64,000 nucleotides of DNA, from the NCBI GenBank assembly GCA_046731735.1, contig JBKPLP010000168.1, forward strand, positions 389 through 64,388, read 5' to 3'. Position numbers and translations under genes: made by a program. Under the pieces are notes generated by a model. It was not told the origin of the DNA, did no database searches, and saw nothing but the letters and a program-made list of their open reading frames with translations. This document shows positions 3,564 through 47,152 of the stretch, piece after piece (position 1 is the stretch's first letter; each line of letters begins with the position of its first letter). This DNA comes from Acidobacteriota bacterium (lineage in GTDB: Bacteria > Acidobacteriota > Vicinamibacteria > Vicinamibacterales > 2-12-FULL-66-21).

Positions 3564-3703
3564 GAATCCCTAATCCCTAATCGCGAATCCCTCATCCTCG
3601 AATCCAGGAATCGCTGAATCCGTGTCGCTAAATCCGCGAATCCCTGAATCCGCGAATCGCGAGCCGCGAATCGCGAGCCGCGAAGATTTACGGATTGGGG
3701 ATT
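3564..3703. repeat. Short-period repeat array R1 (GAATCCC/TAATCCC units, then CCGCGAATCGCGAG x2.3; inverted GGATTGGGGATT at the right end)
   Basis: Read directly in the convergent gap between 1629..3557(+) and 3688..6576(-). The right end overlaps the last codons of the M16 gene. Confidence 0.85.
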
Positions 3704-6576
3704 TTCTTTTCCGGCATGAGCACCACCTTTACGTATCGCGTCATGTCGAGATAGGTCTGCGCCGCCTGCTGCACCGCGTCGCCGCTCAACCCCTGGATTT
3801 GTTCCGGCACGTTCAGCACCGCCGGCAGATCGGATCCGTCGCCGTCCTCGTAGGCCTGTGAAATCTGGTTGAGGAGGTAGCGGTTGTCTTGGCTGTTCGC
3901 CTCGTACTCACGCCGCAGCGTTTCGCGAACGCGGCCCATCTGGGCCGTCCCGATGCGCGTCGATTTCACGAAATCGATCTCCTGGAACACCCGCTGCACC
4001 AGCGCGTCGACGCGCGTGGGATCGCACGTCCATTCGATCCGCACGCGGTATTCGGGACGCGGAAATCGGATGGCGTCAGGCGCGGCCGTGATGCTGTAGG
4101 TGCCGCCGAGCTCCTGGCGGATCGTGTCGAACAGACGCGACTCGAGCAGCATCGTCATGGTGCGGAGCGCGAGCAGGTGCGCGGGATCGTAGGCGAACGG
4201 GCCATGAAAGACGATCGCAACGGAGCTTCTCGGCGCGATGCCCTTCTCGATCGTTTTGTCGATGACCGTCGCCGGCGGCAGGATACCGAGGTCTCTCCGG
4301 TTCTCGTGCGCGTGTGTCGCCGGCAGGCTCGCGATGTAGGTCTCGACGAGCGGCCTGATCGCGTCCAGGGTGAAGCTGCCCACGAACACGAAGGTGAAAT
4401 TGCTGGCGTCGGCGAAGCGGGCCTTGTAGAACGCCAGGGATTTCTCGAGGTTCCACCGGTCCACCGTCGTCGCCGTCTCGGGCTGCCGGCGGGGATGATC
4501 GCCGCTGAGCGCAGCGTTGATGGTCCGGGCAAACACCACGTCCGGGCTGGCGGTCTGGTTTGCGACGAACGCTCGCGCCTGCGCCGTGGTGGCGGCGAAC
4601 GCCGCCGCATCGGCCCGCGGCTGCGTGAAGCGCAGGTAGAGCAGTTGAAACATCGTTTCGAGATCCTGCGGCGTGCTCCCGCCGGCCATGCCCTCTTCGA
4701 GCTCGTCGACGTATGGCACCACCGCAAGCGCTTTCCCCGACAGCAGTCTGTCGAGCATCACGCTGCTGAGCGAGCCGACGCCTCCCGCCGGGACGACAGC
4801 ATCCGCGACGCGCGCCGGAATGAAGTCGGCGTCGCTCGCGAGCGATGTCCCGCCCGGCGCCTCCGCACGGAACAGAATCTGGTCTTCCTTGAGCGTCGTC
4901 GGCTTGAGCACGACCGTCGCCCCATTCGAGAGCGACCACTGCGTCACGCCCGTGTTCGCGGGACTGGTCGTCTTGACAATCGTTCCGCGCGGCGGCGGGG
5001 ACGCGAGCAGCGCCTGGCCGGCGGCGGCATCCACGTACGGCTGAAGACGCCTGGCCGCCGCGGTCTTCACGACGTCGGCCAGCTGTGATTCGGTCGGAAG
5101 CGCCACGCCTTCGGCCTCGGGAGCGGAGACGATGACCAGACGGTTGCTTTCCGGAAACCAGTCGGCCGTGAGCGCGTTGATCTCCGCGAGGGTGATTTCC
5201 GGAAGGAACCGCCGGTGGAACGCGAGCTCCTGCCAGATCGTCGGAAGCGCCTCTCCCTGAAGGAAATTCCGCGTGTACTCGTCGGCGCGGCTGGACGACT
5301 CGCGATCGGGGCTCTCGGTGACGACGCGTTCGTAGTCGAGCATCATCGCCTGCTTGGCGCGGGCGAGCTCGGTTGCGGTGAACCCGAACCGCGCGACCCG
5401 CTGCAGCTCGGTCACCAGCGCGTCAAGCCCGCGCGGCGCGCCGCCGTTCGCTACGAGCGCTTGGAGCGCCGCCTCATCCTTCGTCCTGGGCGCCGGGAAC
5501 AGCCCGCGATTCGCCGCCGCGCGCAGAAATGGCGCATTCGCGCTCTGCGCCAGCTCGTCGAGGCGAGCGTCGAACATCGCGGCGAATAGCTGATCGCGAA
5601 TGAGATCGCGGTAGCCGCCGACGGTCGCCTGGTTGCGCGCCGGCCGCAAGTCCGAGAGCTCGACCACCGTCGCCGTGGTTTCCTTGTCGGTGACGAGCGC
5701 GTAGCGCATCCCGGGGTGTTCCGGCACGTCGAACACCGGCCGCGGCCTCGCCGGCGTCGGCGACGTCAGCGACGAGAAGTGATCGCGAATCAGCCTGACC
5801 GCCGCCTCGCGGTCGACGTCGCCCACGACGATTACCGCCATCAGATCCGGGCGATACCAATCGCGGTAGAAACGGACCAACGTGTCGCGCTGCGCGCGCT
5901 CGATGACCGACGGATCGCCGATCGGACGCCGCTCTGCATAACGAGACCCGTTGAGCTGCACCCGGCGGATCTTCTCCTGCGTCCGCTCGCCCGCCCCCAG
6001 GTTCATCCGCCATTCGGAGAGGACGATGCCGCGCTCGCGCTCGATGGCAGCCTGATCGAACGTGGCGCCCTGCGCCCAGTCCTCGAGAATCAGAAGCGCA
6101 CGATCGAGCACCCCTGGAACGTCGGTCGGCACGCGCAGGGTGTACTGCGTGTCGTCGTAACTGGTGGCCGCGTTCGCATCGGGCCCGATCCCGAGCCCCA
6201 GAGACGAGAGCAGGTCAGGGATACTTTGGCCGGGGAAATGCCGCGTCCCCTCGAACTCCATGTGCTCGACGAAATGCGCCAGCCCGCGCTGGTCGTCGTC
6301 CTCCACAACGGACCCCGCCTTGACCACGAGACGAAGCTCCGCACGATGCGCCGGTTTCGCGTTGGGGCGGACGTAGTAGCGCAATCCGTTCGGGAGGGTC
6401 CCGACGACCGCCTCTGGGTCGAAGGGCATCGGCTGCGACAGCGCGTACGCGGCGACCGATTCGGCGGATGTCTCGCGCCCCTGCGCCTGCGCCTGCTGCG
6501 CAACGGCAAAATGCGCGGTCGTGGAGAAGCTGACGAGCGCGGCGAGAACGAGCTTGCGGGCACGCGAAAGGGTCAT
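3688..6576 (-). CDS. M16 family (pitrilysin/insulinase-like) zinc peptidase, secreted, 962 aa
   Basis: HxxEH zinc motif in LAHFVEHMEFEGT; N-terminal signal-like sequence; duplicated M16 architecture length. Confidence 0.9.
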   Translation of the reverse strand: MTLSRARKLVLAALVSFSTTAHFAVAQQAQAQGRETSAESVAAYALSQPMPFDPEAVVGTLPNGLRYYVRPNAKPAHRAELRLVVKAGSVVEDDDQRGLAHFVEHMEFEGTRHFPGQSIPDLLSSLGLGIGPDANAATSYDDTQYTLRVPTDVPGVLDRALLILEDWAQGATFDQAAIERERGIVLSEWRMNLGAGERTQEKIRRVQLNGSRYAERRPIGDPSVIERAQRDTLVRFYRDWYRPDLMAVIVVGDVDREAAVRLIRDHFSSLTSPTPARPRPVFDVPEHPGMRYALVTDKETTATVVELSDLRPARNQATVGGYRDLIRDQLFAAMFDARLDELAQSANAPFLRAAANRGLFPAPRTKDEAALQALVANGGAPRGLDALVTELQRVARFGFTATELARAKQAMMLDYERVVTESPDRESSSRADEYTRNFLQGEALPTIWQELAFHRRFLPEITLAEINALTADWFPESNRLVIVSAPEAEGVALPTESQLADVVKTAAARRLQPYVDAAAGQALLASPPPRGTIVKTTSPANTGVTQWSLSNGATVVLKPTTLKEDQILFRAEAPGGTSLASDADFIPARVADAVVPAGGVGSLSSVMLDRLLSGKALAVVPYVDELEEGMAGGSTPQDLETMFQLLYLRFTQPRADAAAFAATTAQARAFVANQTASPDVVFARTINAALSGDHPRRQPETATTVDRWNLEKSLAFYKARFADASNFTFVFVGSFTLDAIRPLVETYIASLPATHAHENRRDLGILPPATVIDKTIEKGIAPRSSVAIVFHGPFAYDPAHLLALRTMTMLLESRLFDTIRQELGGTYSITAAPDAIRFPRPEYRVRIEWTCDPTRVDALVQRVFQEIDFVKSTRIGTAQMGRVRETLRREYEANSQDNRYLLNQISQAYEDGDGSDLPAVLNVPEQIQGLSGDAVQQAAQTYLDMTRYVKVVLMPEKKIPNP

Positions 6577-6593
6577 GCACCGATCCTACAGGA

Positions 6594-8183
6594 TCAGTGC
6601 TTCGAGGGTTCGCCGTGGAAGACGCGGCCGAAGTCGAGCCCGAACTTCGGCTCCGTCCTGCTGCCGCGGATTCTGATGGGGACCACGGCGCCGGCGCCGT
6701 CCTTTCGGAACAGTGGATCGATGGCCTTCAACAGCACACCCTTCATGCCGCCCGCCGCTTCCGACACGCTGGCGCGCATGCGGACGTTGCCATCGAACTC
6801 GAGCGTCTCGTTGGCCAGCCCGTAGGTCCCTGCGACCTGGACCTGCGCCCCGGGGATGGCGAACGCCGTGTCGCGCAGGGTAATCGTGTCGCGCGCGAGC
6901 GTGAAGTCACCGTGAAGGGTCGACGAGACGTTCTCCGAATGCTCGGCAGGATCGAGCCCGCGCGCACGCTCGCTCATGTCGGAGATGCGCGCCTGCACCT
7001 CCGGGCTCGTGAATTTCACGCCGGCGATATTGAACTGCCCTCGGAGATGCATGCGATCCATGACGTCGGCTGGACCCGCCGGCAGATCGAGATCGGCGTG
7101 CAGGGCGAGCGCGCCGGTCATCGCGGGCGCATTTCCCTTGACCGCCAGCCGCAGCACGTCTTCGATGCGTCCGTCGTCGATCTTCACATGGACCTTGACC
7201 GTGCGTCCCTTCACGCCTTCAGCACCCACGACCGCGCCGCGCGCGGTCAGCGCGGTCTTGAGGAACGACGCGGAAACCGCATTCAGATACGTGTCGCCAT
7301 CGGTGCCGTCGACGACCGCCTCGAACCTGGTGTGAAGCGGCACGCGCGTGCCGCTCACGTCGAGACGGAAATCCGGCGTGTCCGTTTCGCCCTGTACGCC
7401 GATGCGATCGAGCTGTCCCTCGAAGGTTCCCTTCGAGCTCAACGTGCCCGCGATCCCCTTGATGGGCGTGAGATCAGCGTCATCGAACGTGTAGCGCCCG
7501 GTCAGCGGAGTCCGGCCCGGGTCCTCACGGCTCCACGGACCGAACGTGCCGCTCGCTTTCACCAGCCCTTTCGGGATCGGGTTGGTAATCGACGCGTCGA
7601 ACGTCATGGTCTGCGCCCGTCCCAGCGGCTTCATCCTGAGCCGATGGACGGCAAACACCTTCGGCTCCTTGCCCTGGCGTTTCGGGATGAGCGTCAGGGC
7701 GGCGTCCTCCGCTTCGAGGACGTCCACCACGATCGCGGCCGGGCTGCCATCGTCCGAAGGGGTGGAATCGCTGGTCTTCGGACCGCGGCCGAGACCGCCG
7801 GGTGGAATGTTGACCTTCAGCCCCTTGAGAGAAACCGTGCGAAAGTGGCGCGGCCGGCTGAACAGCCCGATGAGGCCGCCGTCCATCACGAACGCGTCGA
7901 CGGCGACCAGCGGCGGAACGTCGCGTCTTCCTTTATGACGGATCGTCAGGCCTGTGCCGGTGATGTGTACGGTAGGAAACGTGTCGACGCTGAACGATTG
8001 AAGCTCCACTTCGCTGTCCAGGCGGTCGGCCAGCGTCGAGGTGAGGAGCTGCCGAAGCTTGTCGGTACGAGATCCCGCGCCTGCAACGATGGCCAGGAGC
8101 ACCAGGGTTCCGCCGACGATCGCGATCAGCCATCGCGTTGCACGCAGTGTCACCAAGACTCTGCTATTCAAGGCGCGTTCCAT
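6594..8183 (-). CDS. AsmA-family-like envelope protein (single N-terminal TM anchor, long beta-rich periplasmic region)
   Basis: 529-aa ORF with an N-terminal TM helix (WLIAIVGGTLVLLAIVAG) and AsmA-like repetitive beta-rich sequence. It lies 17 nt upstream of the M16 gene on the same strand. The family call is from general resemblance only. Confidence 0.6.
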   Translation of the reverse strand: MERALNSRVLVTLRATRWLIAIVGGTLVLLAIVAGAGSRTDKLRQLLTSTLADRLDSEVELQSFSVDTFPTVHITGTGLTIRHKGRRDVPPLVAVDAFVMDGGLIGLFSRPRHFRTVSLKGLKVNIPPGGLGRGPKTSDSTPSDDGSPAAIVVDVLEAEDAALTLIPKRQGKEPKVFAVHRLRMKPLGRAQTMTFDASITNPIPKGLVKASGTFGPWSREDPGRTPLTGRYTFDDADLTPIKGIAGTLSSKGTFEGQLDRIGVQGETDTPDFRLDVSGTRVPLHTRFEAVVDGTDGDTYLNAVSASFLKTALTARGAVVGAEGVKGRTVKVHVKIDDGRIEDVLRLAVKGNAPAMTGALALHADLDLPAGPADVMDRMHLRGQFNIAGVKFTSPEVQARISDMSERARGLDPAEHSENVSSTLHGDFTLARDTITLRDTAFAIPGAQVQVAGTYGLANETLEFDGNVRMRASVSEAAGGMKGVLLKAIDPLFRKDGAGAVVPIRIRGSRTEPKFGLDFGRVFHGEPSKH

Positions 8184-8207
8184 CGCCAGCTCTTGTATAC
8201 TGCCGCG

Positions 8208-8284
8208 CTACCTTCTACCTTCTACCTTCTACCTTCTACCTTCTACCTTCGTCTCCTACGTCCTACCTCCTATCTCCTACCTCC
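8208..8284. repeat. Heptamer array R2: (CTACCTT)x6 perfect plus 5 degenerate units (CGTCTCC TACGTCC TACCTCC TATCTCC TACCTCC)
   Basis: Counted directly: 42 nt of perfect 7-nt periodicity at 8208-8249. The M28 stop codon (8277-8279) and its last two Arg codons lie inside the array. Confidence 0.95.
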
Positions 8285-9911
8285 TGATCTCTGGCAGCGC
8301 CTTCCTCGGCAGCTTCTCGTCCCGCATCGCCGCGTTGTAGGCGAACACCGCGATGACCGTCGCCTGCTGAATCATGTCGTCGCGCTGGACGCGATCGTAG
8401 AAGTCCATGTTCGAGTGGTGCGTCCGCGAGTTGTATTCCAGTCGATCCACCATGAACTGGAATCCGGGCAGGCCGACCTCATCGAACGACACGTGATCCG
8501 TGGAAGACACCGATCGCGGGCCCACGGCAATGACGCCGAGATCCGCAAGTGGCTTCGTCCACTGTTCGAAGATCGGCCTGACGGCGAGATTTCCCTGCAG
8601 CCAGACCCCCCGCACGCGTCCGGTGCCATTGTCGGAATTGAAGTACGCCGCGAGCTTGGCATGATCCGGCTTGAGCGCCATCGTCGCCGCGTCCGCGAAA
8701 TGTTCGCGAACATACGCGCGCGATCCGAGAAGCCCCTGCTCTTCTCCGCCCCACAACGCGATGCGGATCGTGCGCCTCGGCTTGGCGCCGATGACCTTGA
8801 GAATGCGCATCGCCTCCATCATCGCGGCCGATCCAGCCGCGTTATCCGTCGCACCCGTCGCGGCCGCCACGGAGTCGAAATGGGCGCCGAGGATGACGAC
8901 TTCGTCCTTCAGCCTGGCATCCGTTCCGGGAAGCTCGGCGATCGTGTTGAATCCGTTGGGTGTCGCCTCGTCATGGAACTTCGTCTCGACGTTCAGCTCC
9001 ACCTTGACGGGAATCCCTTTCGCGAGCACGCGCACCATGCGGTTGTAGTGCTCGACGGCGAGCGTGATCGTCGGCAGCCCCGTGCCCGCGTCGGTTCCGC
9101 GCGAGCCGTTGCCGGTAGGAAACACGGTCCCGCCGTCGGTGTGCTGCTGCTGCGGCGACAGGTCGCTGCCGATCGACGCGTAGACGGTGTCGCTGCCGCG
9201 ATTGAAAATCGCGATTGCACCCTCGGCCTTGAAGAACTGCCTGACGCGCGCGGCGAACGTCTGCGCGCCGCGGCCGCGCCCTCTCTCCTCGTCGTCGGGA
9301 TCCGTGCTGCCGGGTCCACCGCTCCGGCGGCCGCGGCCGCCAGGCGGGGGAACCGGCGTCGTCGCTGCCTCGGCAAGATCCTTTTCCCCCATGCGATGCA
9401 CGATCAGGCCGTCGAGCATCGGCACTGCACGCTCCATCTGCGAAAGCACGATCTTCCCCGCGAGCCTGCCGCGGTATTTGTCGAAATCCGCATCGCTGTC
9501 GATCTGAACGCGCACGACGTCAGCCGTGACGGTCCCGTTCGTGCCCGGCGTCCAGGAGGCGGGGAATCCGATGAGCGGCTGAACCTGCGGCTCGACCATC
9601 TGCGCACTGAACCGCACGAGCGACCACCCTTTGCCGAACGGCCAGGTCTCGCGATGCACGTTCACGAGCCCCCATTCTTTGAACTTCCGCATGGCCCAGT
9701 CGCTCGCTTGGAGAATCGCCGGGCCGCCGGTCAGCCGCGGGCCATACACGTCGCTCAGCCAGCTGATGTGATCCATCACCTGAGAGCGGTTCAGGCCTTC
9801 GTCCCGAATCCGCGCGATCGTCGGGTAGTCGAGCGCTTCGGTGGGCGCCTGCGCGGGAACAGAGGCAGCAGCGACCGCCAGCAAGGCAGCGGAGGAAATG
9901 AGGAGTCGCAT
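8277..9911 (-). CDS. M28 family metallo-aminopeptidase with PA domain, secreted
   Basis: Motifs HFDSV..ATDNAAGSAAMMEAMR and WGGEEQGLLGSRAYV; signal peptide MRLLISSAALLAVAAASVPAQA. Confidence 0.9.
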   Translation of the reverse strand: MRLLISSAALLAVAAASVPAQAPTEALDYPTIARIRDEGLNRSQVMDHISWLSDVYGPRLTGGPAILQASDWAMRKFKEWGLVNVHRETWPFGKGWSLVRFSAQMVEPQVQPLIGFPASWTPGTNGTVTADVVRVQIDSDADFDKYRGRLAGKIVLSQMERAVPMLDGLIVHRMGEKDLAEAATTPVPPPGGRGRRSGGPGSTDPDDEERGRGRGAQTFAARVRQFFKAEGAIAIFNRGSDTVYASIGSDLSPQQQHTDGGTVFPTGNGSRGTDAGTGLPTITLAVEHYNRMVRVLAKGIPVKVELNVETKFHDEATPNGFNTIAELPGTDARLKDEVVILGAHFDSVAAATGATDNAAGSAAMMEAMRILKVIGAKPRRTIRIALWGGEEQGLLGSRAYVREHFADAATMALKPDHAKLAAYFNSDNGTGRVRGVWLQGNLAVRPIFEQWTKPLADLGVIAVGPRSVSSTDHVSFDEVGLPGFQFMVDRLEYNSRTHHSNMDFYDRVQRDDMIQQATVIAVFAYNAAMRDEKLPRKALPEIRR

Positions 9912-9927
9912 TCGGGAATTCTATCCG

Positions 9928-10126
9928 CGCCTACGCCGCGAAGCGGCTTCGGCGAGGCTCGCGGTAGCCGGCGCTCGCACTCACGCCGGCGTAGGCGGGC
10001 GGATCCCGGATCCCGCATCCCGGATCCCGCATCCCGGGTCCCCCGCCTGCGCCGCAAAGCGGCTACGGCGCGGCCTCGCCGTAGCCGGCGCTCACACTCA
10101 CGCCGGCGTAGGCGGGCGGATCCCGG
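9928..10126. repeat. Composite palindromic element: two ~80-nt REP-like units (9928-10008 and 10044-10126, ~90% identical by eye) flanking GGATCCC/GCATCCC heptamers (10001-10043)
   Basis: Each unit has an outer 11-bp stem CGCCTACGCCG/CGGCGTAGGCG. Unit 2 has a perfect inner 11-bp stem CGGCTACGGCG-cggcct-CGCCGTAGCCG (10060-10087). The element fills the divergent gap between the M28 and AKR genes. Confidence 0.85.
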
Positions 10127-10138
10127 TATGATCCCCTG

Positions 10139-11486: not shown

Positions 11487-11511
11487 CGCCTCGTCCGCGA
11501 CTCGACCCGAA

Positions 11512-11544
11512 GCCACCGGCTGGTCGCCGGTGGCTTTCGTTTTT
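11512..11544. terminator. Rho-independent terminator after rpmE, possibly bidirectional (GCCACCGGC-tggtc-GCCGGTGGC followed by TTTCGTTTTT)
   Basis: Perfect 9-bp GC stem and T-rich tail read directly. It abuts the stop of the convergent gene at 11544. Confidence 0.75.
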
Positions 11545-12884
11545 CAGCGGCAGAGCTGGTCGAGAAGCGGCACCGCCCGAGTCGAGATCTTGCGTTCCAA
11601 CCGCGCCAGCCGATGCCGGGTCGCGTCCGCTTTGGGGCGGAGATTGGCCTGGGCCGATTCTTCGAGAAGCATCAGCGCGAGCTCCCTGGCACCTGCGTAG
11701 TCGCGCTCGCGATGTTCGTGATGGACCGCAAGCGCCTCGGCGGCAACCTGGCGGAGCGGCCCCAGCAGCTCGCTGCGCCGGCCAAAACGCGGCTGCCGCA
11801 AGTCGAGAATCGTCCGCCACACCGCCGCGGCCTCCGCGAACCGCCGATCGCGCCGAAGCCGCCGCGCCTTGAGATACAGCGCTTCCGCCCTGACGTCGAT
11901 GTGTGCTCCGGGGTCAGCCGCTGCGTGCTCGAAGCACCCGGCCGCACGATCGGCACATCCGGCTCGTTCGTAAATCTTCCCCAGGGCGAGCGCTTCCGCC
12001 GCGTCGCGGCAGCGCGGCGTGCCCTCGTGCACGAGCCGCGACGCATGCGCGGTCAGCGCCGCCAGCGAGACGAGATCGATCCGGTTGTGCTCGAGCACGG
12101 GTTCGAGGGGACAGGGATCGCCGGAACGCACGAACCGAAAGAAGCGCGACGGGATCTCCAGTCCGGGAACGTCGCCGATCCGGCGCACGTCGAAGAGCGC
12201 ACGCTCGAGCGTCGACAGGCGGCAGCCATTTTCGTCGTCCCGCCATAGCCGGCGTGCCGGATGCAGCATGTCGAAATGCGGCACCCGCTCGAGCGACGGC
12301 TCCATCCGGTGAAACAGCCAGCGCGTCTCCATCACCGGCACGTCGAACGTTTTCCCGTTGTAGGTGACGATCAGATCCGCGTCCTCGAAGAAATCCGCGC
12401 AGGCGGCGAGGAGCGCGCGCTCCTTCGAATGGCTGGTGAGCAGAAACTGCCGCACCTGAAACGCGCCGACGTCGAAATATCCACACCCCACCAGGAACGC
12501 GACCATTCCGGCGCCGCCGCTCAGTCCCGTCGTCTCCAGATCGATGAAGATCGTCCGCGGCACCTGACCGCAACGGGCGGCTGGCCAGCCCGCGGTCACC
12601 GCCGCAAGCGAAGGGTCGAGAACGGCCAGCGCGGCAACATCTGCCAACTCGCAATCGCCGATGCGGATACCGCCGTGCCACCGATCCGACTCGTACCGCC
12701 GATCGACGACGAGGCACTCGCCGAACTCGGTATCGATGCGCCGCCCACCGAGCGCGCTGGCCACCCGGTCCAGATCCAGCGCCGCCGCATTCCGATACCC
12801 GTCATCGGGCTCGTAGGTGAGCTCGCGCGTCGGTGTCGGTGGACCGCTTTTGACGATGGCGCGCAGCCGCGAGGAGAGATCCAT
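11544..12884 (-). CDS. RNase H-like (DEDDh) 3'-5' exonuclease with C-terminal TPR region; YprB/MrfB-like
   Basis: IFIDLETTGL (Exo I), TYNGKTFDVPV (Exo II), HNRIDL (Exo III). The C-terminal helical repeats are TPR-like. Its ATG overlaps the stop of the upstream helicase (ATGA). Confidence 0.8.
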   Translation of the reverse strand: MDLSSRLRAIVKSGPPTPTRELTYEPDDGYRNAAALDLDRVASALGGRRIDTEFGECLVVDRRYESDRWHGGIRIGDCELADVAALAVLDPSLAAVTAGWPAARCGQVPRTIFIDLETTGLSGGAGMVAFLVGCGYFDVGAFQVRQFLLTSHSKERALLAACADFFEDADLIVTYNGKTFDVPVMETRWLFHRMEPSLERVPHFDMLHPARRLWRDDENGCRLSTLERALFDVRRIGDVPGLEIPSRFFRFVRSGDPCPLEPVLEHNRIDLVSLAALTAHASRLVHEGTPRCRDAAEALALGKIYERAGCADRAAGCFEHAAADPGAHIDVRAEALYLKARRLRRDRRFAEAAAVWRTILDLRQPRFGRRSELLGPLRQVAAEALAVHHEHRERDYAGARELALMLLEESAQANLRPKADATRHRLARLERKISTRAVPLLDQLCR

Positions 12885-15403
12885 CAGACCGTCTGGACCT
12901 CGAGCAGGCGATCGAGAATGCGCGATGCCACCGTCTTCGCATGCGGTCCCGTGTTCCCTTCAGGGCCGACGCACGAGGGACAGCCCGACGCACACGGACA
13001 TCCGACGATCAGCTCGCGCGTACGCTCGAGCAGCAGATCGTGCATGTCATAAAGGGGACGGCTGAAGCCGATCCCGCCGGGATAGTTGTCGTAGACAAAG
13101 ATGTTCGGTTCGCTCGCCAGGGCGTCTGGCACCCCGCCCATCCCGCCGGTCCGCGTCGTCCGATCGAGCGACCCGCCGTCTACCGACAGTCCGATGTCGT
13201 GCCCGTCGCACATCAGCAGCAGCTGCGCGATGTTCTTCATCGCGAACGCCAGCCCGATGACGCCGTCGCGTCGATCGTCGCCGGCAAATGGCAGCGACGC
13301 GATGACGTCGCCCGGAATCGTCAGCCAGTACGCCGACGTGTGCATCTGCTGCTCCGGCAGATCGAGCTCGCCGGACCCGACATTCTCGTTGGTGTAGAAC
13401 TTGATCTTCTTGAAGCCGACGACGCGCGACACGACATGGACCTCGCCGTGGGACTTCGCCGCGTCCGGGATCCGGGATCCGGGATCCGGGATCCGATCGG
13501 ATCCCGCATCACGCATCCCGCACCCCGATGCGAAGGTATCGAGAATCGTCACCTTGGTGTAGGTGATCGCGTTCGTGTAGTAGTCGCAGTCGACATGACG
13601 GAGGTACGCTTTCCGCCCGTCGAAATCCAGGCGCTCGACCTGGAACAGCTGCCCCTCCAGGATGTAGATCGCCTTTTCGTGGAGTATCGCCGGCGCGCTG
13701 GTGAAATCGGTCTCGCCGATCACGCGTTCGCCGTTCGTCGTGTCGATGACCACGAAGTTGTCCGACGACACGGATCGCAGGCTGACGGCGTCGGCGGGGT
13801 ACGATTCGTTTGTCCAGTTCCACTGCCCGTCCGCCTGGTGCACGAAGCCTTCTTCCGACAGCACCGCCAGCACCGCCTGCACGTCGACGTCTCCGGCGCG
13901 TCCGTCGGCGCCGAACTGCTCGTCGTTCGTGAACGGCAGCTCGAAGGCGGCGCATTTGACGTGATCGAGCAGGATGTGCAGGTTGTCGGGATTGATGAGC
14001 GCATGCTCGGGCGACGCGCCGAAGAAGTACGACGGGTTGCGCACGATGAACTGATCGATCGGCGCGCTGCTCGCCACCAGCACCGCCGCCGACCTGGTCG
14101 TCCGGCGGCCGGCCCGCCCGGCGCGCTGCCACGTGGCCGCGATCGTACCCGGGTAGCCGGCGAGTACCGCGACGTCGAGCGCGCCGATGTCGATCCCGAG
14201 CTCGAGCGCGTTCGTCGACACCACCGCGCGCACCTGTCCCTCGCGCAAGCCACGCTCGATCTCGCGCCGCCGGTTCGGCAGGTAGCCGCCGCGATAGCCG
14301 CGAATCACGTCGGCGGCGCCGGGGGGACCATGAAACGCGTCCTTGAGATACGTCGTCAGGATCTCGACCGCGAGGCGGCTCTGGCCGAACACGATCAGCT
14401 GGAGGTTGTGCTTGAGGAACTCGAGCGCGACCCGGCGGGTTTCCGCGAGGTACGACCGCCGGATGCCCAGCTGCGCGTTCACGACCGGCGGGTTCACGAA
14501 GAGAAAGAACTTTTCCCCGCGCGGCGCGCCGTTCTTCTCCACCAGCTCGAACCGACGCCCGATCAGCCCTTCGGCGAGCTCGCGCGGGTTCGCGATCGTC
14601 GCCGACGAGCAGATGAAGATCGGATCCGATCCGTAGTGACGGCAGATCCGCTGCAGGCGCCGCATGATGTTCGCGAGGTGACTGCCGAACACGCCACGGT
14701 ATGCGTGCAGCTCGTCGACCACGACGAAGCGAAGGTTCTCGAAGAGTTTCCCCCAGCGCGGATGGTGCGGCAGGATCCCGGAGTGCACCATGTCGGGGTT
14801 GCTGAGGACCACGTGCGCTTTGCCGCGGATCGCGCGCCGCGCGTCGGCCGGCGTGTCGCCGTCGTAGGTGAAGACCCCGATCTCGAGCTCCGTGCCTCGC
14901 GCGACGATTTCCGACAGCGTGTGGAGCTCCGCCAGCTGGTCCTGCGCGAGCGCCTTCGTCGGAAAGAGATACAACGCGCGTGTCGCCGGATCCTGCAGAA
15001 TCGCGTTCATTACCGGCGCGTTGTAGCAAAGCGTCTTTCCCGACGCGGTGGGCGTGATGGTCACGACGTTCCGGCGCGCGAGGACGTGGTCGAACGCCTC
15101 CGCCTGGTGCGTGTAGAGCTGCTCGATGCCGCGGGTACGAAGCGCCGAAACGAGCCGTTCGTCGGTCCCGTCCGGATACGGCGCGAACGCCGCGGGGATC
15201 GCCGGCAGACGGTGCGCCGCCGTGACGATCGGCTCCTCCTCGGGACCAAGCGGCCCGCGCGAGGACGTCAGCCGGCTCAACACCTCCTGCAGCAGCCGAT
15301 CTTTGTCTCCGGTAACGACGGGCAGGGTCTGGTTCGGCATGGAAACTATTGACCGCACAGGAATTGCGGGGCCCATCGTAGCAGGCCACGGGGAGGCGAT
15401 CAA
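12884..15403 (-). CDS. DEAD/DEAH-box helicase with C-terminal DUF1998/MZB Cys-cluster domain; YprA/MrfA-like. Start uncertain (TTG 15403, ATG 15376 or ATG 15340)
   Basis: Motif I TPTASGKT, motif II DELH, motif III SAT, motif VI QRAGRAGR, C-terminal CPCASGCPSC. Confidence 0.9.
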   Translation of the reverse strand: MIASPWPATMGPAIPVRSIVSMPNQTLPVVTGDKDRLLQEVLSRLTSSRGPLGPEEEPIVTAAHRLPAIPAAFAPYPDGTDERLVSALRTRGIEQLYTHQAEAFDHVLARRNVVTITPTASGKTLCYNAPVMNAILQDPATRALYLFPTKALAQDQLAELHTLSEIVARGTELEIGVFTYDGDTPADARRAIRGKAHVVLSNPDMVHSGILPHHPRWGKLFENLRFVVVDELHAYRGVFGSHLANIMRRLQRICRHYGSDPIFICSSATIANPRELAEGLIGRRFELVEKNGAPRGEKFFLFVNPPVVNAQLGIRRSYLAETRRVALEFLKHNLQLIVFGQSRLAVEILTTYLKDAFHGPPGAADVIRGYRGGYLPNRRREIERGLREGQVRAVVSTNALELGIDIGALDVAVLAGYPGTIAATWQRAGRAGRRTTRSAAVLVASSAPIDQFIVRNPSYFFGASPEHALINPDNLHILLDHVKCAAFELPFTNDEQFGADGRAGDVDVQAVLAVLSEEGFVHQADGQWNWTNESYPADAVSLRSVSSDNFVVIDTTNGERVIGETDFTSAPAILHEKAIYILEGQLFQVERLDFDGRKAYLRHVDCDYYTNAITYTKVTILDTFASGCGMRDAGSDRIPDPGSRIPDAAKSHGEVHVVSRVVGFKKIKFYTNENVGSGELDLPEQQMHTSAYWLTIPGDVIASLPFAGDDRRDGVIGLAFAMKNIAQLLLMCDGHDIGLSVDGGSLDRTTRTGGMGGVPDALASEPNIFVYDNYPGGIGFSRPLYDMHDLLLERTRELIVGCPCASGCPSCVGPEGNTGPHAKTVASRILDRLLEVQTV
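13462..13524. repeat. Palindromic heptamer element R4 inside the helicase CDS ((CGGGATC)x4 - GGATCCGATCGGATCC core - degenerate GCATCCC arm)
   Basis: The 16-nt perfect palindrome is at 13489-13504. About 44 nt are identical (in reverse orientation) to the intergenic copy at 47080-47152. It is translated in frame as CGMRDAGSDRIPDPGSRIPD. Confidence 0.85.
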
Positions 15404-15420
15404 GTGGCGAAGGTGCGGGG

Positions 15421-15716
15421 GGATCGATTGACGATTGCAGACTGCCGATTGCCGATTTCATAGATTGACGGTTGCAGATTGAGATTGGCGAGTGCTGAGT
15501 GCCAGTGTCGACTGCTGAGTGCCGAACGCCGAATCCGAATGAAAATGTGATTAATCAGAATGGCAATCGAGATCAGGAGTCGCAATCGACAATCGGCAAT
15601 CCCATTCGGCAATCGGCAATGCAATCGACAACCGGCAATCCCAATCGACAATCAACAAATCTCAATCGACAATCGGCAATCGCAAAATCGGCACTCGGCA
15701 ATCGTCAATCGGCATT
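15421..15716. repeat. Largest array R5: left arm of CGATTG-type units, right arm of CAATCG-type units (reverse complements), AT-richer centre
   Basis: Read directly. The outermost 14 nt pair perfectly (15425-15438 CGATTGACGATTGC with 15698-15711 GCAATCGTCAATCG). The centre has TGCTGAGTGCC x2 flanking GTCGAC. Confidence 0.9.
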
Positions 15717-17045
15717 GCGACTGCGCGCCACCCTCGCGGCCATCCCGCTCAGGCCGACGACGCCGATCAGGTTCGGGAAGATTTGCAGCGCGTTCATCAG
15801 ATCACCCCAGGCCCATACGAGATCCACCTTGGCGATCGCGCCGAACGGAATCAGCAGGCAATAGATCCACCGATAGGGCGTGACCACGCGCGGGCCCAGC
15901 CAGTACTCGAGGAACTGCTCGCCGTAGTAGGCCCAGCCGATCAGCGTGCCATAGCCGAACAGGAACACACAGAACGCAACCAGATAGCCACCCACACCCG
16001 GCATGACTGAATTGAACGCGAGCCCCACCGCCGCAGTACTCGTTGCCCGCTGCGCGGCGGGCACGCTCCAGTCGACGACGCCGGAGAGCATGACGGTCAG
16101 AGCGGTCAACGTGCAGGTGCCGAATGACACGATGAAGGTTTCCATGACCGCATTGAGCCCTTGCTGGGCCGGCCGCGCGCTCTGCGCCGTGCCGTAGGCC
16201 ACCGCGGACGTGCCGTACCCCGCCTCGTTCGCGTAGAGTCCGCGGGCGAGGCCATAACGGATGGCGGTGAAGACCCCGAAGCCCATCGCCGATCGCGTGG
16301 TAAACGCTTCACGAAAAACCATCGTGAGGACGTCCGGTAAACGCGACGCGAACGACACGATGACGATGAGACTGCCCACGAGATAGATGCCGATTTTCGC
16401 GGGCGCGAGCTTCTCGAATGCGCGGCCGATCGATTTGATCCCGCCGATGATGACCAGCCACGTGAGCAGGGCAACTGCGCCGCCGGTGATCCATCGCGGC
16501 ACGCCGACCTGAGTATTCATGACGAGAGCAATCGAATTGGTTTGGGTAAACGGGGTGGTCGTCAGTGCGGCGATGCCGGCGACGACGGCGTAGGTCATCG
16601 CGAGCGCCGGCGAACGCAGCCCGTCGCGCAGGTAGTACATCGGCCCCGAGCGCACGTCCTCGCGGCCGATCGCGGCCCGGAAGCTCAAACCGAGCACCGC
16701 TTCGCTGAACTTGATCGCGGTGGCGAAGAAGCCATAGCACCAGACCCAGAACAGCATGCCGGGACCGCCGGAGACAACGCCCGCGGCAACACCGGCGATG
16801 TTCCCCGTGCCGATCGTCGTGCCGAGCGCAGTCATGAACGCCTGAAAGGGCGTGAGCACGCCCGCGGCGCCGGCGACGCGACCGCCGAAGAACGCGCGCA
16901 GCGCCTCGCCGAACCGTCTGATCTGTACGACACGGAGCCGGAGCGTCAGAAAAATACCTGCCCCGAACAGCACGGCGACGAGGACGGGGACGAACAGCCA
17001 GTCTGCGGTGGACTGAATCAGGGCCGCAAAACGGCTCGAAATCAT
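15705..17045 (-). CDS. Alanine/glycine:cation symporter (AGCS family)
   Basis: 446 aa, about 11 TM; FQAFMTALGTTIGTGNIAGVA motif typical of AGCS transporters. Confidence 0.85.
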   Translation of the reverse strand: MISSRFAALIQSTADWLFVPVLVAVLFGAGIFLTLRLRVVQIRRFGEALRAFFGGRVAGAAGVLTPFQAFMTALGTTIGTGNIAGVAAGVVSGGPGMLFWVWCYGFFATAIKFSEAVLGLSFRAAIGREDVRSGPMYYLRDGLRSPALAMTYAVVAGIAALTTTPFTQTNSIALVMNTQVGVPRWITGGAVALLTWLVIIGGIKSIGRAFEKLAPAKIGIYLVGSLIVIVSFASRLPDVLTMVFREAFTTRSAMGFGVFTAIRYGLARGLYANEAGYGTSAVAYGTAQSARPAQQGLNAVMETFIVSFGTCTLTALTVMLSGVVDWSVPAAQRATSTAAVGLAFNSVMPGVGGYLVAFCVFLFGYGTLIGWAYYGEQFLEYWLGPRVVTPYRWIYCLLIPFGAIAKVDLVWAWGDLMNALQIFPNLIGVVGLSGMAARVARSRNAD

Positions 17046-29845: not shown

Positions 29846-29847
29846 GC

Positions 29848-30117
29848 CTAGCGCGCGTAGCGCTCCGCCGAGCGCGCGCGCATTTTCGCCGCGTACTCAT
29901 CGCGGTCTTTCGGCGGCGCGGTGGTGACCAGCGACTCAATCAAACGCTGCGCCGCGGCAGTGACCTCGACGACGGCGGTGTTGAACGCGTCCTCATTCGC
30001 CTTCGACGGTTTCGTGAAGCCGCTCACCTTCCGCACGAACTGCAGCGCCGAGGCGCGGACCTCATCCTCGGTCGCGGGGGGTTCGAAGTTGAACAGCGGC
30101 TTGATATTTCGGCACAT
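29848..30117 (-). CDS. DUF2277 domain protein (89 aa)
   Basis: MCRNIKPLFNFEPPATEDEVRASALQFVRKVSG is the conserved DUF2277 N-terminus (from memory). Confidence 0.8.
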   Translation of the reverse strand: MCRNIKPLFNFEPPATEDEVRASALQFVRKVSGFTKPSKANEDAFNTAVVEVTAAAQRLIESLVTTAPPKDRDEYAAKMRARSAERYAR

Positions 30118-34457: not shown

Positions 34458-34556
34458 TCCATGGATCCCTAATCCTGGAATCCCTAATCCTGGAATCCCT
34501 AATCCACGAATCCCTGAAGCCGCGAATCGTTGAATCCATGAATCGCTTCAATCCTT
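34439..34556. repeat. Array R8: GAATCCC/TAATCCC/TAATCCT units, partly as the 15-mer GGAATCCCTAATCCT x3
   Basis: Read directly. It supplies the last codons (N)RIPNP and the TAA stop of the DPP4 gene. Confidence 0.9.
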
Positions 34557-34557
34557 C

Positions 34558-34582
34558 GTAACATCTGCCCCCGTGGGACGTA
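34558..34582 (+). promoter_or_regulatory. Possible ECF-type autoregulated promoter (GTAAC-N16-CGTA)
   Basis: Spacing counted directly, 16 nt upstream of the sigma factor ATG. Motif match is weak. Confidence 0.25.
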
Positions 34583-35523: not shown

Positions 35524-41503
<5,980 letters not shown>

Positions 41504-44402: not shown

Positions 44403-47075
44403 ATGACCGACGCCCCGCGCGATCCCCATGAACGGCTTCGAGACGACGTACGGTTGCTGGGCGGCCTGCTCGGCGAAACGCTGCGCCTGCGCGAAGGCGC
44501 TGCGCTCTACGAAACAGTGGAACGCGTCCGAGCGCTGTCGAAGAGCGGCCGCGCCGGCAGCGACCGCGATCTCGATGCGCTTGCCGATCTCCTGCGGACG
44601 CTGCCGGTCGAATCGGCGGTACCGGTGGCCCGCGCCTTTTCGCACTTCCTGACGCTGGCGAACATCGCCGAGCAGCATCACCGGGTCCGGCGGCGGCGCC
44701 AGTACCTGCGCGATCCGCACGCGGCGCCCCAGCGCGGGTCCTGCGACGAAACGTTCGCACGTCTCACGTCCCACGGCGTCACCGCCGATGCGTTGCATGC
44801 GGCGACGACGTCGATGCGTGTCGAGCTGGTGCTGACGGCGCATCCGACGGCGATCACACGGCGGACGCTGATCCAGAAGCACCTTCGCATTGCCGACGCG
44901 CTCTCGCGGCAGGATCGCGACGATCTCACCGTGCCGGAACGGCAGGAGATCGTCGAGACGCTTCGGCGAGAGGTGATGGCCTCGTGGGAAACGGACGAAA
45001 TCCGCGCGCGCCGGCCGACGCCCGTCGACGAAGCGATTGCCGGGCTGCTGATTTTCGAGCAGACGCTCTGGGACGCGGTGCCGAGGTTCTTGCGCTCGCT
45101 CGATGCCTCGCTGAAGCGCGCCACCGGCCGCCCGCTCCCGCTGGACGCGGCACCGCTGCGCTTCGGCTCGTGGATGGGGGGCGATCGCGATGGCAATCCC
45201 ACGGTAACCCCCCGGGTGACGCACCTCGCGTGCGGCGTGGCCCGGTGGATGGCTGCCGACCTGTACGAGCGGGAGATTGCCGCGCTGCGCGCGGAACTGT
45301 CGATGACGCCGGCGACGAAGGAACTCCAGACGCGCGCAAACGGCGCGCGCGAGCCCTACCGCGCGGTGTTGCGGGAGGTTCGGGATCGGCTGCGCGCGAC
45401 CCGCGATCATTTCGGCGGCGAGCTGGCGCGCGCCGAACTGCTCAAGGGAGACGCGACGCCGGGAAAGGCCGCGCCCTACTTATCGGTCGCGGATCTCCGT
45501 GAACCGCTGCAGCTCTGTTACCGATCCCTCGTCGAGACCGGTCAGCAGGTGATCGCCGACGGCCGCCTGACCGACCTCCTGCGGCGCACCGCCGCGTTCG
45601 GGCTCACGCTCGTGCGGCTCGATCTCCGGCAGCACGCGGCGCGGCACGCGGCGGCGCTCGATGCCATCACGCGCCATCGCGGCGACGGTTCGTACCTCGA
45701 ATGGGATGAAGCGAAGCGGCAGGCGTACCTCACGGCCGCTCTGCGCGGCTCGACGCCGCTCGTCCCCGACGATCTCGTAGCGGATGACGAGGTGCGGGAC
45801 GTCGTGGCGACCTTCAGACTCGCAGGCCTGCTCGATCCGGAGTCGCTCGGCGCCTACGTGATCTCGATGGCACAGGCCCCCTCCGACGTGCTCGCCGTCG
45901 AAGCATTCCAGGCTCATTCGAAGCACCGGCTCCGCGTGGTGCCGCTCTTCGAACGGGTCGACGATCTCCAAGCCGCAGCCGGGACGCTGCGCGAGCTCCT
46001 CGCGATTCCGGAATATCGCCGGCGGATTGGCACCGAACAGGAGGTGATGATCGGGTATTCCGACTCCGCCAAGGATGGCGGCCGATTGGCGGCGAACTGG
46101 GCGTTGTACCTCGCCCAGGAATCCATCGTCGACGTGTGCCGTGAGGCGAACGTCCAGCTGACGCTGTTCCACGGCCGCGGCGGCAGCATCAGCCGCGGCG
46201 GCGGCCCGACCTATCTCGCGATCCAGTCCCAGCCCCCCGGGTCGGTGAACGGGCGCCTTCGGGCGACCGAACAGGGAGAAATGATCCAGGCACAGTTCGG
46301 CCTGCCGGAGATCGCAACCCGCACGCTGGAGCTCTACACCACCGCCACGCTCGCCGCGACGCTCGAAGTGGCCCCTCAGCCGGATCCGCGCTGGCGGCCC
46401 GTGATGGATCGCCTCGCGGAGGCCGCGCGCGGCGTGTACCGCGAGGTCGTCTACGACAACCCGCGGTTCGTCGAGTATTTCCGCAAGGCGACGCCGGAGG
46501 TCGAGCTGGGTGTCGTGCCGATCGGAAGCCGTCCGGTGCGCCGCACCGAGGACGGCGGGGTCGATTCGCTGCGCGCGATCCCCTGGGTGTTCGCGTGGAC
46601 GCAGACGCGGCTCCTCCTGCCGTCATGGCTGGGAACCGGCGAAGCGCTGGCGGCGGCGCTCGAGCGTGGCGAGCTGGACGTGCTGAGGAAGATGTACGAG
46701 CAGTGGCCGTTCTTCCGCTCGACGCTGGACTTGATCGCGATGGTGCTCGCGGAATCGGACGCGCGGATTGCCGCCGAATACGACCGTCGCCTCGTCCCTC
46801 CGGATCTGCAGCCGGTCGGCACCGACCTGCGCCGCCGCCTCGATGCGACGATTCAATCGGTGCTGACGACGACGGGCAAAGAACGGCTGCTGACGGAGAA
46901 CGTCGTGCTCAGGCGGTCAATCGAGGTGCGCAACCCGTACGTCTATCCGATCAACCTCGTGCAGATCGAGCTGCTGCGCCGGCTCCGCGAAGAGGGGCAC
47001 GACGATCCGCAAATCACCAACGCGTTCCAGGTGACCGTCAACGGCATCGCTGCGGGGATGCGGAATACTGGTTGA
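44403..47075 (+). CDS. ppc: Phosphoenolpyruvate carboxylase
   Basis: TAHPT, VMIGYSDSAKDGG, FHGRGGSISRGGGP and the C-terminal GMRNTG signature. Confidence 0.95.
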   Translation: MTDAPRDPHERLRDDVRLLGGLLGETLRLREGAALYETVERVRALSKSGRAGSDRDLDALADLLRTLPVESAVPVARAFSHFLTLANIAEQHHRVRRRRQYLRDPHAAPQRGSCDETFARLTSHGVTADALHAATTSMRVELVLTAHPTAITRRTLIQKHLRIADALSRQDRDDLTVPERQEIVETLRREVMASWETDEIRARRPTPVDEAIAGLLIFEQTLWDAVPRFLRSLDASLKRATGRPLPLDAAPLRFGSWMGGDRDGNPTVTPRVTHLACGVARWMAADLYEREIAALRAELSMTPATKELQTRANGAREPYRAVLREVRDRLRATRDHFGGELARAELLKGDATPGKAAPYLSVADLREPLQLCYRSLVETGQQVIADGRLTDLLRRTAAFGLTLVRLDLRQHAARHAAALDAITRHRGDGSYLEWDEAKRQAYLTAALRGSTPLVPDDLVADDEVRDVVATFRLAGLLDPESLGAYVISMAQAPSDVLAVEAFQAHSKHRLRVVPLFERVDDLQAAAGTLRELLAIPEYRRRIGTEQEVMIGYSDSAKDGGRLAANWALYLAQESIVDVCREANVQLTLFHGRGGSISRGGGPTYLAIQSQPPGSVNGRLRATEQGEMIQAQFGLPEIATRTLELYTTATLAATLEVAPQPDPRWRPVMDRLAEAARGVYREVVYDNPRFVEYFRKATPEVELGVVPIGSRPVRRTEDGGVDSLRAIPWVFAWTQTRLLLPSWLGTGEALAAALERGELDVLRKMYEQWPFFRSTLDLIAMVLAESDARIAAEYDRRLVPPDLQPVGTDLRRRLDATIQSVLTTTGKERLLTENVVLRRSIEVRNPYVYPINLVQIELLRRLREEGHDDPQITNAFQVTVNGIAAGMRNTG

Positions 47076-47079
47076 AATG

Positions 47080-47152
47080 TGCCGGGATGCGCGATGCGGG
47101 ATGCGGGATCCGATCGGATCCCGGATCCCGGATCCCGGATCCCGGATCCCGA
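47080..47152. repeat. Palindromic heptamer element R9: (GATGCGG/GATGCGC) arm - GGATCCGATCGGATCC core (47106-47121) - (GGATCCC)x5 arm (47116-47150)
   Basis: Read directly in the convergent gap between ppc(+) and the HhH gene(-). Same element as 13462-13524, in opposite orientation. Confidence 0.9.

Follow-up and report, generated by a model that had tools for sequence, protein, structure and literature searches.

Heptanucleotide repeat arrays of variable unit in a 64-kb stretch of a Vicinamibacterales genome and in related loci

Results

Tandem arrays in the window

The window analysed here is a stretch of 64,000 nucleotides from an acidobacterium of the order Vicinamibacterales (GenBank assembly GCA_046731735.1, contig JBKPLP010000168.1, positions 389 to 64,388). 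It carries genes for peptidases, a Na:Ala symporter, a helicase and several large permeases and, mostly between these genes, arrays of short tandem units with a period of 7 nt, which are the subject of this work (Table 1). Genes were mapped using a codon log-odds caller trained on the data, with Pfam support; the start codons are approximate. Arrays were detected with Tandem Repeats Finder (TRF) and by direct reading of each locus. Period-7 arrays (one of them period-8) were present at every coordinate listed in an earlier inspection of this DNA, here called the original prediction, and the junction types named there agree with the gene map. The accompanying claim that nearly every gap longer than 60 nt is built from such repeats was overstated: there are about 19 gaps of at least 60 nt on the map, and about 9 of them hold arrays. 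Arrays are absent from all gaps beyond 47.2 kb. Several of the gaps without arrays are ordinary, and classic terminators lie at 11509-11537 and 53398-53432.

Table 1. Repeat arrays identified in the window
Feature	Positions	Strand	Units and setting
Array	3561-3703		GAATCCC/TAATCCC/GAATCGC units at 3564-3684; convergent gap; TRF and direct reading
Array	8208-8287		Perfect (CTACCTT)x6 at 8208-8249, then degenerate CTACSTC units
Array	10000-10048		(CGGATCC/CGCATCC)x6; divergent gap 9912-10138
Array	13464-13527	-	Palindromic heptamers in helicase ORF 12884-15403(-); TRF, Pfam and fold
Largest locus	15421-15716		Two inverted arms between symporter stop codon and helicase promoter-like motif
Palindrome	26517-26683		Divergent gap, upstream of PadR promoter/operator region
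Array	29784-29845		GAATCCC TAATCCC TAATCGC, then period-8 (GAAGCCYY)x5 (4.9 copies at 29806-29844)
Array	34439-34556		GAATCCC/TAATCCC units; 15-nt (7+8) higher-order period
Palindromic array	47083-47157		(CGSGATG)x3, CGGGATCCGATCGGATCC, (CGGATCC)x5; occupies 82-nt convergent gap

The extents obtained with TRF were 10000-10042, 29786-29803, 34439-34554 and 47083-47163, with two separate calls at the largest locus (15425-15522 and 15582-15714), and the copy numbers in the window ranged from 4 to 19. A lag-match scan (35-nt windows, self-match of at least 77%, lags 4-12) picked out five lag-7 regions and a single lag-8 region, and no region of the window at lags 4-6 or 9-12. The sequence AATCCCTAATCCC, with at most two mismatches, occurs 17 times in the window, against 0.39 occurrences expected from dinucleotide shuffles. 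Higher-order periods of 14, 15 (7+8), 20 and 39 nt were also detected (3650-3684, 15580-15711 and 34449-34544), which indicates that blocks of several diverged units have themselves been duplicated. The 14-nt repeat at 3650-3684 belongs to the array at 3564-3684. At the largest locus, the left arm (15421-15522) consists of CGATTGN/GAGTGCY units, and the right arm (15582-15716) of about 19 CAATCGN units with higher-order periods of 14, 20 and 39 nt. The palindrome in the divergent gap at 26.6 kb has a left arm GAATCCC TAATCCC TCATCGT GAATCCT CAATCTT (26517-26552) and a right arm (GGGATTG/GGGGATT)x6 (26641-26683); a promoter-like site at 26699-26727 lies outside it.

Several arrays run up to, or into, the flanking genes. 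The array at 3564 begins 7 nt past the stop codon of gene 1629-3557(+), and an inverted pair of units, GGATTGGGGATT, at 3691-3703 overlaps the 3' end of gene 3688-6576(-). The block of six CTACCTT units, predicted to be perfect and confirmed as such by direct reading, lies upstream of gene 6594-8183(-), 25 nt from its start, and the degenerate units that follow extend over the stop codon (8277-8279) that ends the M28 peptidase gene 8277-9911(-). The largest locus lies between the promoter-like motif of the helicase gene and the stop of the symporter gene 15705-17045(-). The array at 29784-29845 takes up an entire convergent gap of 69 nt. In gene 32244-34457(+), the last six codons and the TAA stop are themselves array units, so that the protein ends in ...NRIPNP*. 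Units with TAA or TAG shut all three reading frames inside 21 nt. Finally, the two copies of a 117-nt direct duplication differ in unit number: the array at 10000-10048, with six units, lies in the first, and the second (10075-10126) has only a 1.4-unit seed, CGGATCCCGG.

Period, location and diversity of arrays across the order

We compared the window with 160 fetched loci (helicase gene +/- 10 kb; numbered with the prefix L) from metagenome-assembled genomes (MAGs) and metagenomes. The closest orthologues of the window's helicase are 85-88% identical to it (Vicinamibacterales, Acidobacteriota). Removal of near-duplicates left 149 sequences including the window (2.09 Mb, all Vicinamibacterales), which are the basis of the lag coverage; unit diversity, junction types and inverted partners were counted in the first 81 sequences (142 arrays), and G-tracts in 233 arrays, of which 159 are intergenic. 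Self-match at lag 7 covered 3.91% of the intergenic and 0.25% of the coding bases. The corresponding values were 2.59% and 0.12% at lag 14, and 1.14% and 0.012% at lag 8, whereas lags 4, 5, 6, 10 and 11 each covered at most 0.08% of either. Arrays occurred at a density of 1.1 per 10 kb, and at least one was present in 74 of the 96 loci of 10 kb or more. Although only about 10.6% of the bases are intergenic, 74% of the arrays are, and 85% if a hot spot within the helicase gene (see below) is left aside.

The 142 arrays comprise 103 distinct canonical units; the variation of the unit from locus to locus within a recurring architecture, first noted in the window, is found across the lineage. A conserved period combined with a sequence that is not conserved raises the question of whether some protein of low sequence specificity, with one contact to the nucleic acid per 7 nt, uses the arrays as binding platforms; candidates would be a cold-shock/OB-fold protein on RNA or single-stranded DNA, or a nucleoid protein. 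CspB has been reported to bind as one protein per heptamer, in work discussed in PMC4679880. Against such a protein, the units differ wholly between loci, periods of 8 and 15 nt are mixed in, and arrays are freely gained and lost at orthologous sites. So many units, more than 100 in all, speak against a sequence-specific binder and also against G-quadruplex formation as a general explanation. We consider it very improbable that the arrays serve as protein platforms.

Inverted arms and folding

The larger loci had been described as long palindromes in which a unit on the left is matched by its reverse complement on the right. RNA folds scored against dinucleotide shuffles support this at most of them. 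The strongest potential was obtained at 15415-15720 (z = -7.4; a hairpin of about 290 nt) and 26505-26695 (z = -6.0), followed by 13455-13535 within the helicase gene (z = -4.6), 47076-47165 (z = -4.0) and 9990-10050 (z = -3.2). It was weak at 3560-3709 (z = -2.6; a 13-bp terminal stem), one of the loci for which a palindrome had been proposed, and at 34436-34560 (z = -2.3); in the folds of 8190-8290 (z = +0.6) and 29779-29850 (z = +1.2), hairpin potential was absent. Palindromy is thus frequent, not universal, among the window arrays. In the comparison set, 65 of the 142 arrays (46%) had a reverse-complement partner at a distance of 300 nt or less; controls with reverse-only and complement-only partners gave 7 and 10 (5-7%). 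Inverted pairs are found within the helicase coding sequence as well. Because a terminator hairpin within an open reading frame (ORF) would be harmful, palindromy appears to be intrinsic to the formation of the arrays and not to have been selected for termination.

Possible roles in termination and G-quadruplex formation

The position and folding of the arrays bear on the possibility that they are selected structural cis-elements, that is, RNA hairpins for termination or 3'-end protection, or G-quadruplex or i-motif structures that modulate the flanking genes. Most arrays adjoin a stop codon and three fill whole convergent gaps (3558-3687, 29779-29847 and 47076-47157), yet a terminator scan of the window reported 11509-11537 and 53398-53432 and scored no array locus as a canonical intrinsic terminator. 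Such a terminator has a GC-rich short stem and a loop of 3-8 nt, with a T-run after it, and lies downstream of a gene. Hairpin potential is strong at several loci (z from -4 to -7) but two arrays lack any structure. At 3560-3709 the hairpin is followed by UUUUCUUUU, which makes this the sole array locus with a trailing U-run, and in the relative L111 a mini-hairpin with a T-run stands at the site of an array in L116 (see below). Arrays in the first 81 sequences were found at 70 co-directional, 18 convergent and 13 divergent junctions, whereas about 61, 16 and 25, respectively, were expected from gap base pairs. Divergent junctions are thus depleted, as in Xanthomonas (PMC4692102). Nevertheless, inverted arrays do occur at divergent junctions and in coding sequence, where termination would be pointless or harmful, and the orthologous gaps of relatives are array-free or contain unrelated units. 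The original prediction that a pure terminator role does not explain the arrays was thus borne out.

Arrays of GGGAATC and GGGGA(C/T)T form G-quadruplexes in vitro (PMC4692102). At least four G3 or C3 tracts were present in only 54 of 233 arrays (23%), and in 24 of the 159 intergenic ones (15%). In those repeats every unit has a G3-4 tract (GGGNATC or GGGGAYT), and a G-quadruplex can be folded from four or more units. Here, one such tract per unit is found only in the GGGATTN and GGGATCC subset; CTACCTT, CAATCGN and GAAGCCYY have none. The orientation of the G-rich strand with respect to transcription is inconsistent. Since no more than 23% of the arrays qualify, we rejected G-quadruplex formation as a general explanation. 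At 3564 and 34439 the C-rich strand was seen by inspection to be the sense strand, but not at 8208 and 47083, and this inconsistency argues against C-rich Rho-utilisation sites. On balance, an origin of the arrays as selected structural elements is unlikely.

Arrays inside the helicase gene

The array at 13464-13527 had been listed as intergenic (13466-13493), which is wrong: it lies between the Pfam domains of an 839-aa DEAD/HRQ1-WHD/MrfA-Zn helicase encoded by ORF 12884-15403(-). On the minus strand it reads (CGGGRTG)x3, CGGGATCCGATCGGATCC, (CGGATCC)x4, and its in-frame translation, ...GCGMRDAGSDRIPDPGSRIPDA..., forms part of a hypervariable loop (about 13440-13545). In orthologues this loop, bounded by TILDTF and SHGEVHVVSRVVGFKK, is anywhere between about 3 and about 85 aa long, and 34 of 149 have period-7 arrays in it. 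Many loops read GIRDPGS, RIPDPGS or SRIPA, which are the three frames of GGGATCC/GGATCCC; at the DNA level the in-gene arrays are inverted, with a left arm of (GGGATCC)n and a right arm of (GGATCCC)n. The use of all three frames indicates that the repeat is a feature of the DNA and not of the peptide. An origin as a coding repeat was rejected on the same grounds and because the period, 7, cannot be divided by 3. Within the gene, the repeat survives in a permissive loop if it is stop-free and in frame.

In a single MAG (L054, with contigs of up to 1.7 Mb), the helicase gene is frameshifted exactly at the array. This could reflect a sequencing or assembly error or a real OFF state. Repeats can mislead assemblers, and the frameshift raises the question of whether the arrays as a whole are artefacts of assembly or sequencing, an outcome that the original prediction had named as one that would refute it. 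The coding copies hold the reading frame, and the 74 of 96 independent loci of at least 10 kb that contain arrays come from many projects, including megabase-contig MAGs and metagenome contigs of the Joint Genome Institute (JGI). Moreover, L018 (a long-contig MAG) and L100 (a JGI metagenome contig) align colinearly across 19,955 nt, including their arrays, and not one indel separates them. The agreement of independent assemblies shows that the arrays are real, and we regard an artefact as practically inconceivable.

A motif upstream of the helicase gene is conserved throughout the order. It consists of TTTCGCCxCTTGATCGCC, about 12-15 nt, and CTGYTACGATGG (15396-15412(-) in the window; gaps of L001-L031), and resembles a -35/-10 promoter (TTGATC ... 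TACGAT). The arrays are always located upstream of it.

Turnover of arrays between relatives

Comparison of orthologous gaps, as suggested in the original prediction, revealed that both the presence of an array and the identity of its unit vary by genome. The gap between the symporter and helicase genes contains arrays of GGGATCC, GCACCGA, CTCCAAA/TTTGGAG (inverted), GGGCGTT, CATTCGG or CAATCNN, or none. Two other orthologous gaps were equally variable; in L017, the gap orthologous to 9912-10138 carries an AATCCCT...GGGATGC/GGGATCA palindrome.

Changes in unit number were judged on near-identical pairs among the fetched loci. Pairs of genomes that are at least 99.4% identical revealed just three distinct indel events: 14 nt in (CCAACTC)n, 21 nt in the (CGAACCG)n of a helicase loop, with the frame kept, and one 17-nt hairpin. 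Two of the three (14 and 21 nt) are therefore changes by whole units inside arrays. At a larger distance, L111 and L116 (97.7% identical) differ at two sites, where a long palindromic array in one genome faces a short palindrome in the other. At the first, in the helicase loop, a 117-nt (GGCCGAA)n...(TTCGGCC)n palindrome stands opposite GGCCTTCGGCC; at the second, in the adjacent gap, L111 has the mini-palindrome AACTTCGAAGTT with a T-run in place of the long 8-mer palindromic array of L116. The borders of the presence/absence differences between L111 and L116 showed no target-site duplication and lay in microhomology (GGCC).

Other repeats were seen in some gaps. In L007 (9640-9960), about seven tandem copies of a unit of about 39-40 nt (...AGATCCGCGAAGATCCGCGTCCCGTTGGACCGTTA...) replace the heptamers between the symporter and helicase genes. 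Another hairpin repeat, flanked by A- and T-runs (AAAAAGGGGACAGTCACCTTTTT, AAAAAGACACCCGACGTCTTTTT), is present in two to three copies in L012 (4914-5165) and L026 (9831-10012); in other relatives, too, it is found in the same orthologous gap. Gene content also differs around one of the window arrays. Genes 1629-3557(+) and 3688-6576(-, M16 peptidase) are absent from the syntenic region of L003, L004 and L006, where the orthologue of 6594-8183 directly adjoins that of 951-1592; the array at 3558-3687 lies between these two extra genes.

Genes next to the arrays

Three array loci flank genes for permeases of the acidobacterial 'ADOP' type. The window encodes several of these large duplicated MacB_PCD/FtsX permeases (26738-29778, 35524-38139, 44454-47075 and 54752-57487). 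One of them is preceded by a PadR regulator (26738-27100), with an inverted TGTAGACA/TGTCTACA site at about 26695-26735.

Relation to known repeat classes

Heptanucleotide repeats have been known in cyanobacteria since 1990, and their statistical over-representation in many large bacterial genomes since 2007. The units of the cyanobacterial short tandemly repeated repetitive (STRR) sequences, found in heterocystous species, are CCCCAGT, TTGGTCA and CAACAGT; dimers of these units number zero in the window and the loci. The STRR sequences of Calothrix PCC 7601, as cited in PMC4692102, share with the present arrays that tandem heptanucleotides are scattered in intergenic DNA, and differ in phylum and GC content.

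The original prediction rightly set aside CRISPR arrays, the highly iterated palindrome HIP1 and enterobacterial repetitive intergenic consensus (ERIC) sequences; CRISPR arrays, in which direct repeats of 23-50 nt alternate with unique spacers about as long, were rejected on account of the 7-8-nt period and the lack of spacers. Its statement that no described class matches was mistaken, since heptanucleotide long simple sequence repeats (LSSRs; Mrázek 2007) and the heptamers of Xanthomonas and Nostoc (Rehm 2015) do. The search it proposed in Rfam returned 0 matches at the gathering threshold in the whole window; the proposed search of the literature did supply a described class. The window arrays belong to this known but unexplained class of heptanucleotide repeats, to which we assign them because the same properties are reported there (PMC4692102, PMC4679880). 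Our literature search found no heptamer repeats reported for Acidobacteria or Vicinamibacteria.

According to the accounts of their survey in PMC4679880 and PMC4692102, Mrázek, Guo and Shah (2007) found heptanucleotides to be the most abundant LSSRs of 5-11 nt in many large, high-GC genomes of non-pathogens, mainly in non-coding DNA, and proposed as their cause slippage of the segment of about 7 nt that is bound by the polymerase. Tandem units of 5-11 nt beyond chance, over-representation of period 7 and change by whole units are shared with the arrays described here. Vicinamibacterales, palindromic pairing and in-frame copies in protein loops do not appear in the survey, as far as these accounts convey it.

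Rehm et al. (2015) described dispersed heptamer arrays, GGGAATC in Xanthomonas and GGGGA(C/T)T in Nostoc, of 2-26 units that are heterogeneous within an array and, in xanthomonads, 89-93% intergenic (PMC4692102). Convergent inverted pairs that could form stem-loops or cruciforms number 70-75 per Xanthomonas genome and only a few in Nostoc. The arrays lie near ORF ends, are rare between divergent ORFs and vary from Xcc to Xac; they are not linked to any gene class, and no function is known for them (PMC4692102). Our arrays resemble them in period, mixed units, dispersed and strongly intergenic location (often beside ORF ends), inverted pairs, depletion at divergent junctions, variability between relatives and the lack of a gene-class link. 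Even the sequences can be close: the array at 26641-26683 is in essence (GGGGATT)n, and GAATCCC/TAATCCC, read on the opposite strand, is (GGGATTN)n, although exact GGGAATC dimers are absent from the window and loci. The differences are that the host is an acidobacterium; that there are more than 100 units across the order and at least five in the window, among them units free of G-tracts (CTACCTT, CAATCGN, GAAGCCYY), with about 23% of the arrays G-quadruplex-capable by tract count; and that the helicase gene is a recurrent in-frame hot spot.

Abundant intergenic direct repeats of heptamers are also known as TAACTGA in marine Beggiatoaceae (PMC4679880) and as the GGACCGG elements of four heptanucleotides in Geobacter metallireducens, which occur within genes too (PMC2700814). 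These have one dominant unit per genome, in arrays of only 2-6 units, whereas the arrays described here are diverse, reach about 19 units and have inverted arms; TAACTGA dimers are absent from the window and loci. Simple sequence repeats (SSRs) of phase-variable genes likewise change in unit number by slippage, and a 7-nt unit in an ORF shifts the frame unless three units are involved. In contrast to these, our arrays are mostly intergenic and have no tie to surface or restriction genes; the in-gene change was a frame-preserving 21 nt, and the only frameshifted copy is that of L054.

Discussion

The periodicity, distribution and diversity of the arrays, their turnover by whole units, the paired short and expanded states, the palindromy and the preservation of reading frame were all observed directly. 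The periodicity, turnover and palindromy suggest to us that slippage and template switching generate the arrays and that these are nearly neutral. On this basis the arrays are probably hypermutable heptanucleotide LSSRs, with occasional 8-nt units, that are made in situ by slippage and template switching and tolerated in unconstrained DNA. Replication slippage of a unit of about 7 nt would create and remodel arrays in place, and hairpin-mediated template switching would keep both arms of a palindrome growing in step. Arrays would persist where the DNA is unconstrained, that is, between a stop codon and the next promoter and in convergent gaps, and in indel-tolerant protein loops provided that the unit is stop-free and the length in frame. 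No fixed template would set the unit, and arrays might sometimes be copied ectopically between loci of one genome. On transcription or unwinding, long hairpins or cruciforms could form from inverted arrays, and the GGGATTN/GGGATCC subset may form G-quadruplex or i-motif structures; such structures may incidentally affect 3'-end stability or replication. We infer that the arrays are a mutational by-product and not a dedicated regulatory device.

A number of observations weigh against this explanation, among them a sharing of sequence between loci of one genome that in part looks more like copying than like independent origin in situ. About 62 nt of 13464-13527 (minus strand) and 47083-47150 are nearly identical, with GGGATCCGATCGGATCC at the centre (alignment A1), and beyond the array borders the similarity is lost. 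The same 26-mer, CTGAATCCCTAATCCCTAATCGCGAA, is found at 3561-3586 and from 29783. In L080, the loci 8520-8650 and 20750-20845 have the same unit pair and the same termini, CTGAGATTG...CAATCTCA. Identical units are found in 6.1% of pairs of arrays from the same genome (more than 1 kb apart) and in 1.2% of pairs from different genomes. The depletion at divergent junctions (13 against about 25) hints at selection, and the placement beside stop codons could reflect it, so that the arrays may have a function. All lineage statistics come from one genomic neighbourhood, the helicase gene +/- 10 kb, and depend on our own approximate gene caller, and the near-identical pairs are consensus assemblies of metagenomes. 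The explanation also does not account for the preference for 7 nt.

Because of the sharing within genomes, a mobile or gene-conversion component deserves consideration, either as a rival or as an addition to slippage. The palindromic arrays might be small non-autonomous mobile hairpins, similar to MITEs or to repetitive extragenic palindromic (REP) sequences and bacterial interspersed mosaic elements (BIMEs), that are copied between loci, slippage only modifying the copies. Such copying is supported by the hairpin of about 62 nt, which recurs almost unchanged at two unrelated window loci with the similarity confined to it, by the two positions of the 26-mer, each a few nt past a stop codon, by the common termini in L080 and by the fivefold more frequent sharing of units within than between genomes. 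That one of two 97.7%-identical genomes has a 117-nt palindromic array which the other lacks also fits; however, no target-site duplications were seen there, and the borders lie in GGCC microhomology. The arrays do not have a uniform length or internal sequence (103 units among 142 arrays), many have no inverted partner (for example, 8208 and 29784), and the indels inside arrays of near-identical genomes are whole multiples of 7. No transposase or RAYT gene was noted beside the arrays, although no search aimed at one was made. Mobile hairpins are an improbable source of the arrays.

The original prediction had also left room for a match to a known REP or MITE family, and none was obtained. MITEs have terminal inverted repeats, target-site duplications and many copies that are nearly identical and uniform in length. 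They were rejected because, for all the inverted arms of the arrays, the presence/absence polymorphisms lack target-site duplications, units and lengths are heterogeneous, and few loci share sequence. REP/BIME sequences, which are associated with a RAYT transposase, resemble the arrays in being intergenic and palindromic, often as inverted pairs at gene ends with possible hairpins at mRNA 3' ends; they were rejected since a REP is a fixed imperfect palindrome, 20-40 nt long, whose GTAG-type head is conserved, and the arrays are tandem 7-mers of variable unit.

A different repeat in the window looks like a separate REP-like class. The 117-nt direct duplication at 9927-10126, with a 52-nt core (9958-10009 and 10075-10126) that is 96% identical, is made of GC-rich palindromes with GTAG/CTAC (CCTACGCCG...CGGCGTAGG). 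Palindromes of this kind make up many of the indels between loci that are 87-96% identical (for example, L042/L047, L045/L143 and L122/L141), and a further one possibly lies at 60001-60073.

We put forward, as a possibility that is doubtful at present, that the palindromes of heptamer arrays are made by a distinct process general to the lineage, in which short hairpins such as terminator stems or palindromic codons are the seeds. A specific activity in replication or repair would lengthen both arms of the seed by about 7 nt at a time, and the hairpins so formed would now and then be copied elsewhere. If true, this process would be the source of most of the long intergenic DNA in these genomes and of new peptide segments in proteins, and one enzymatic mechanism would account for STRR sequences, the Xanthomonas and Nostoc repeats and the arrays described here.

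The heptanucleotide class is extended here to a new lineage, the Vicinamibacterales, which are abundant soil Acidobacteriota, and the more than 100 units found in it decouple period from sequence. New as well are the natural before/after pairs, in which close relatives have a mini-hairpin or a long palindromic array, and the recurrent in-frame hot spot in a conserved helicase. Arrays can supply stop codons and C-termini, which calls for caution in assembly and gene calling. The before/after pairs and the hot spot can be used for measuring slippage versus selection, and the arrays are potential high-resolution strain markers.

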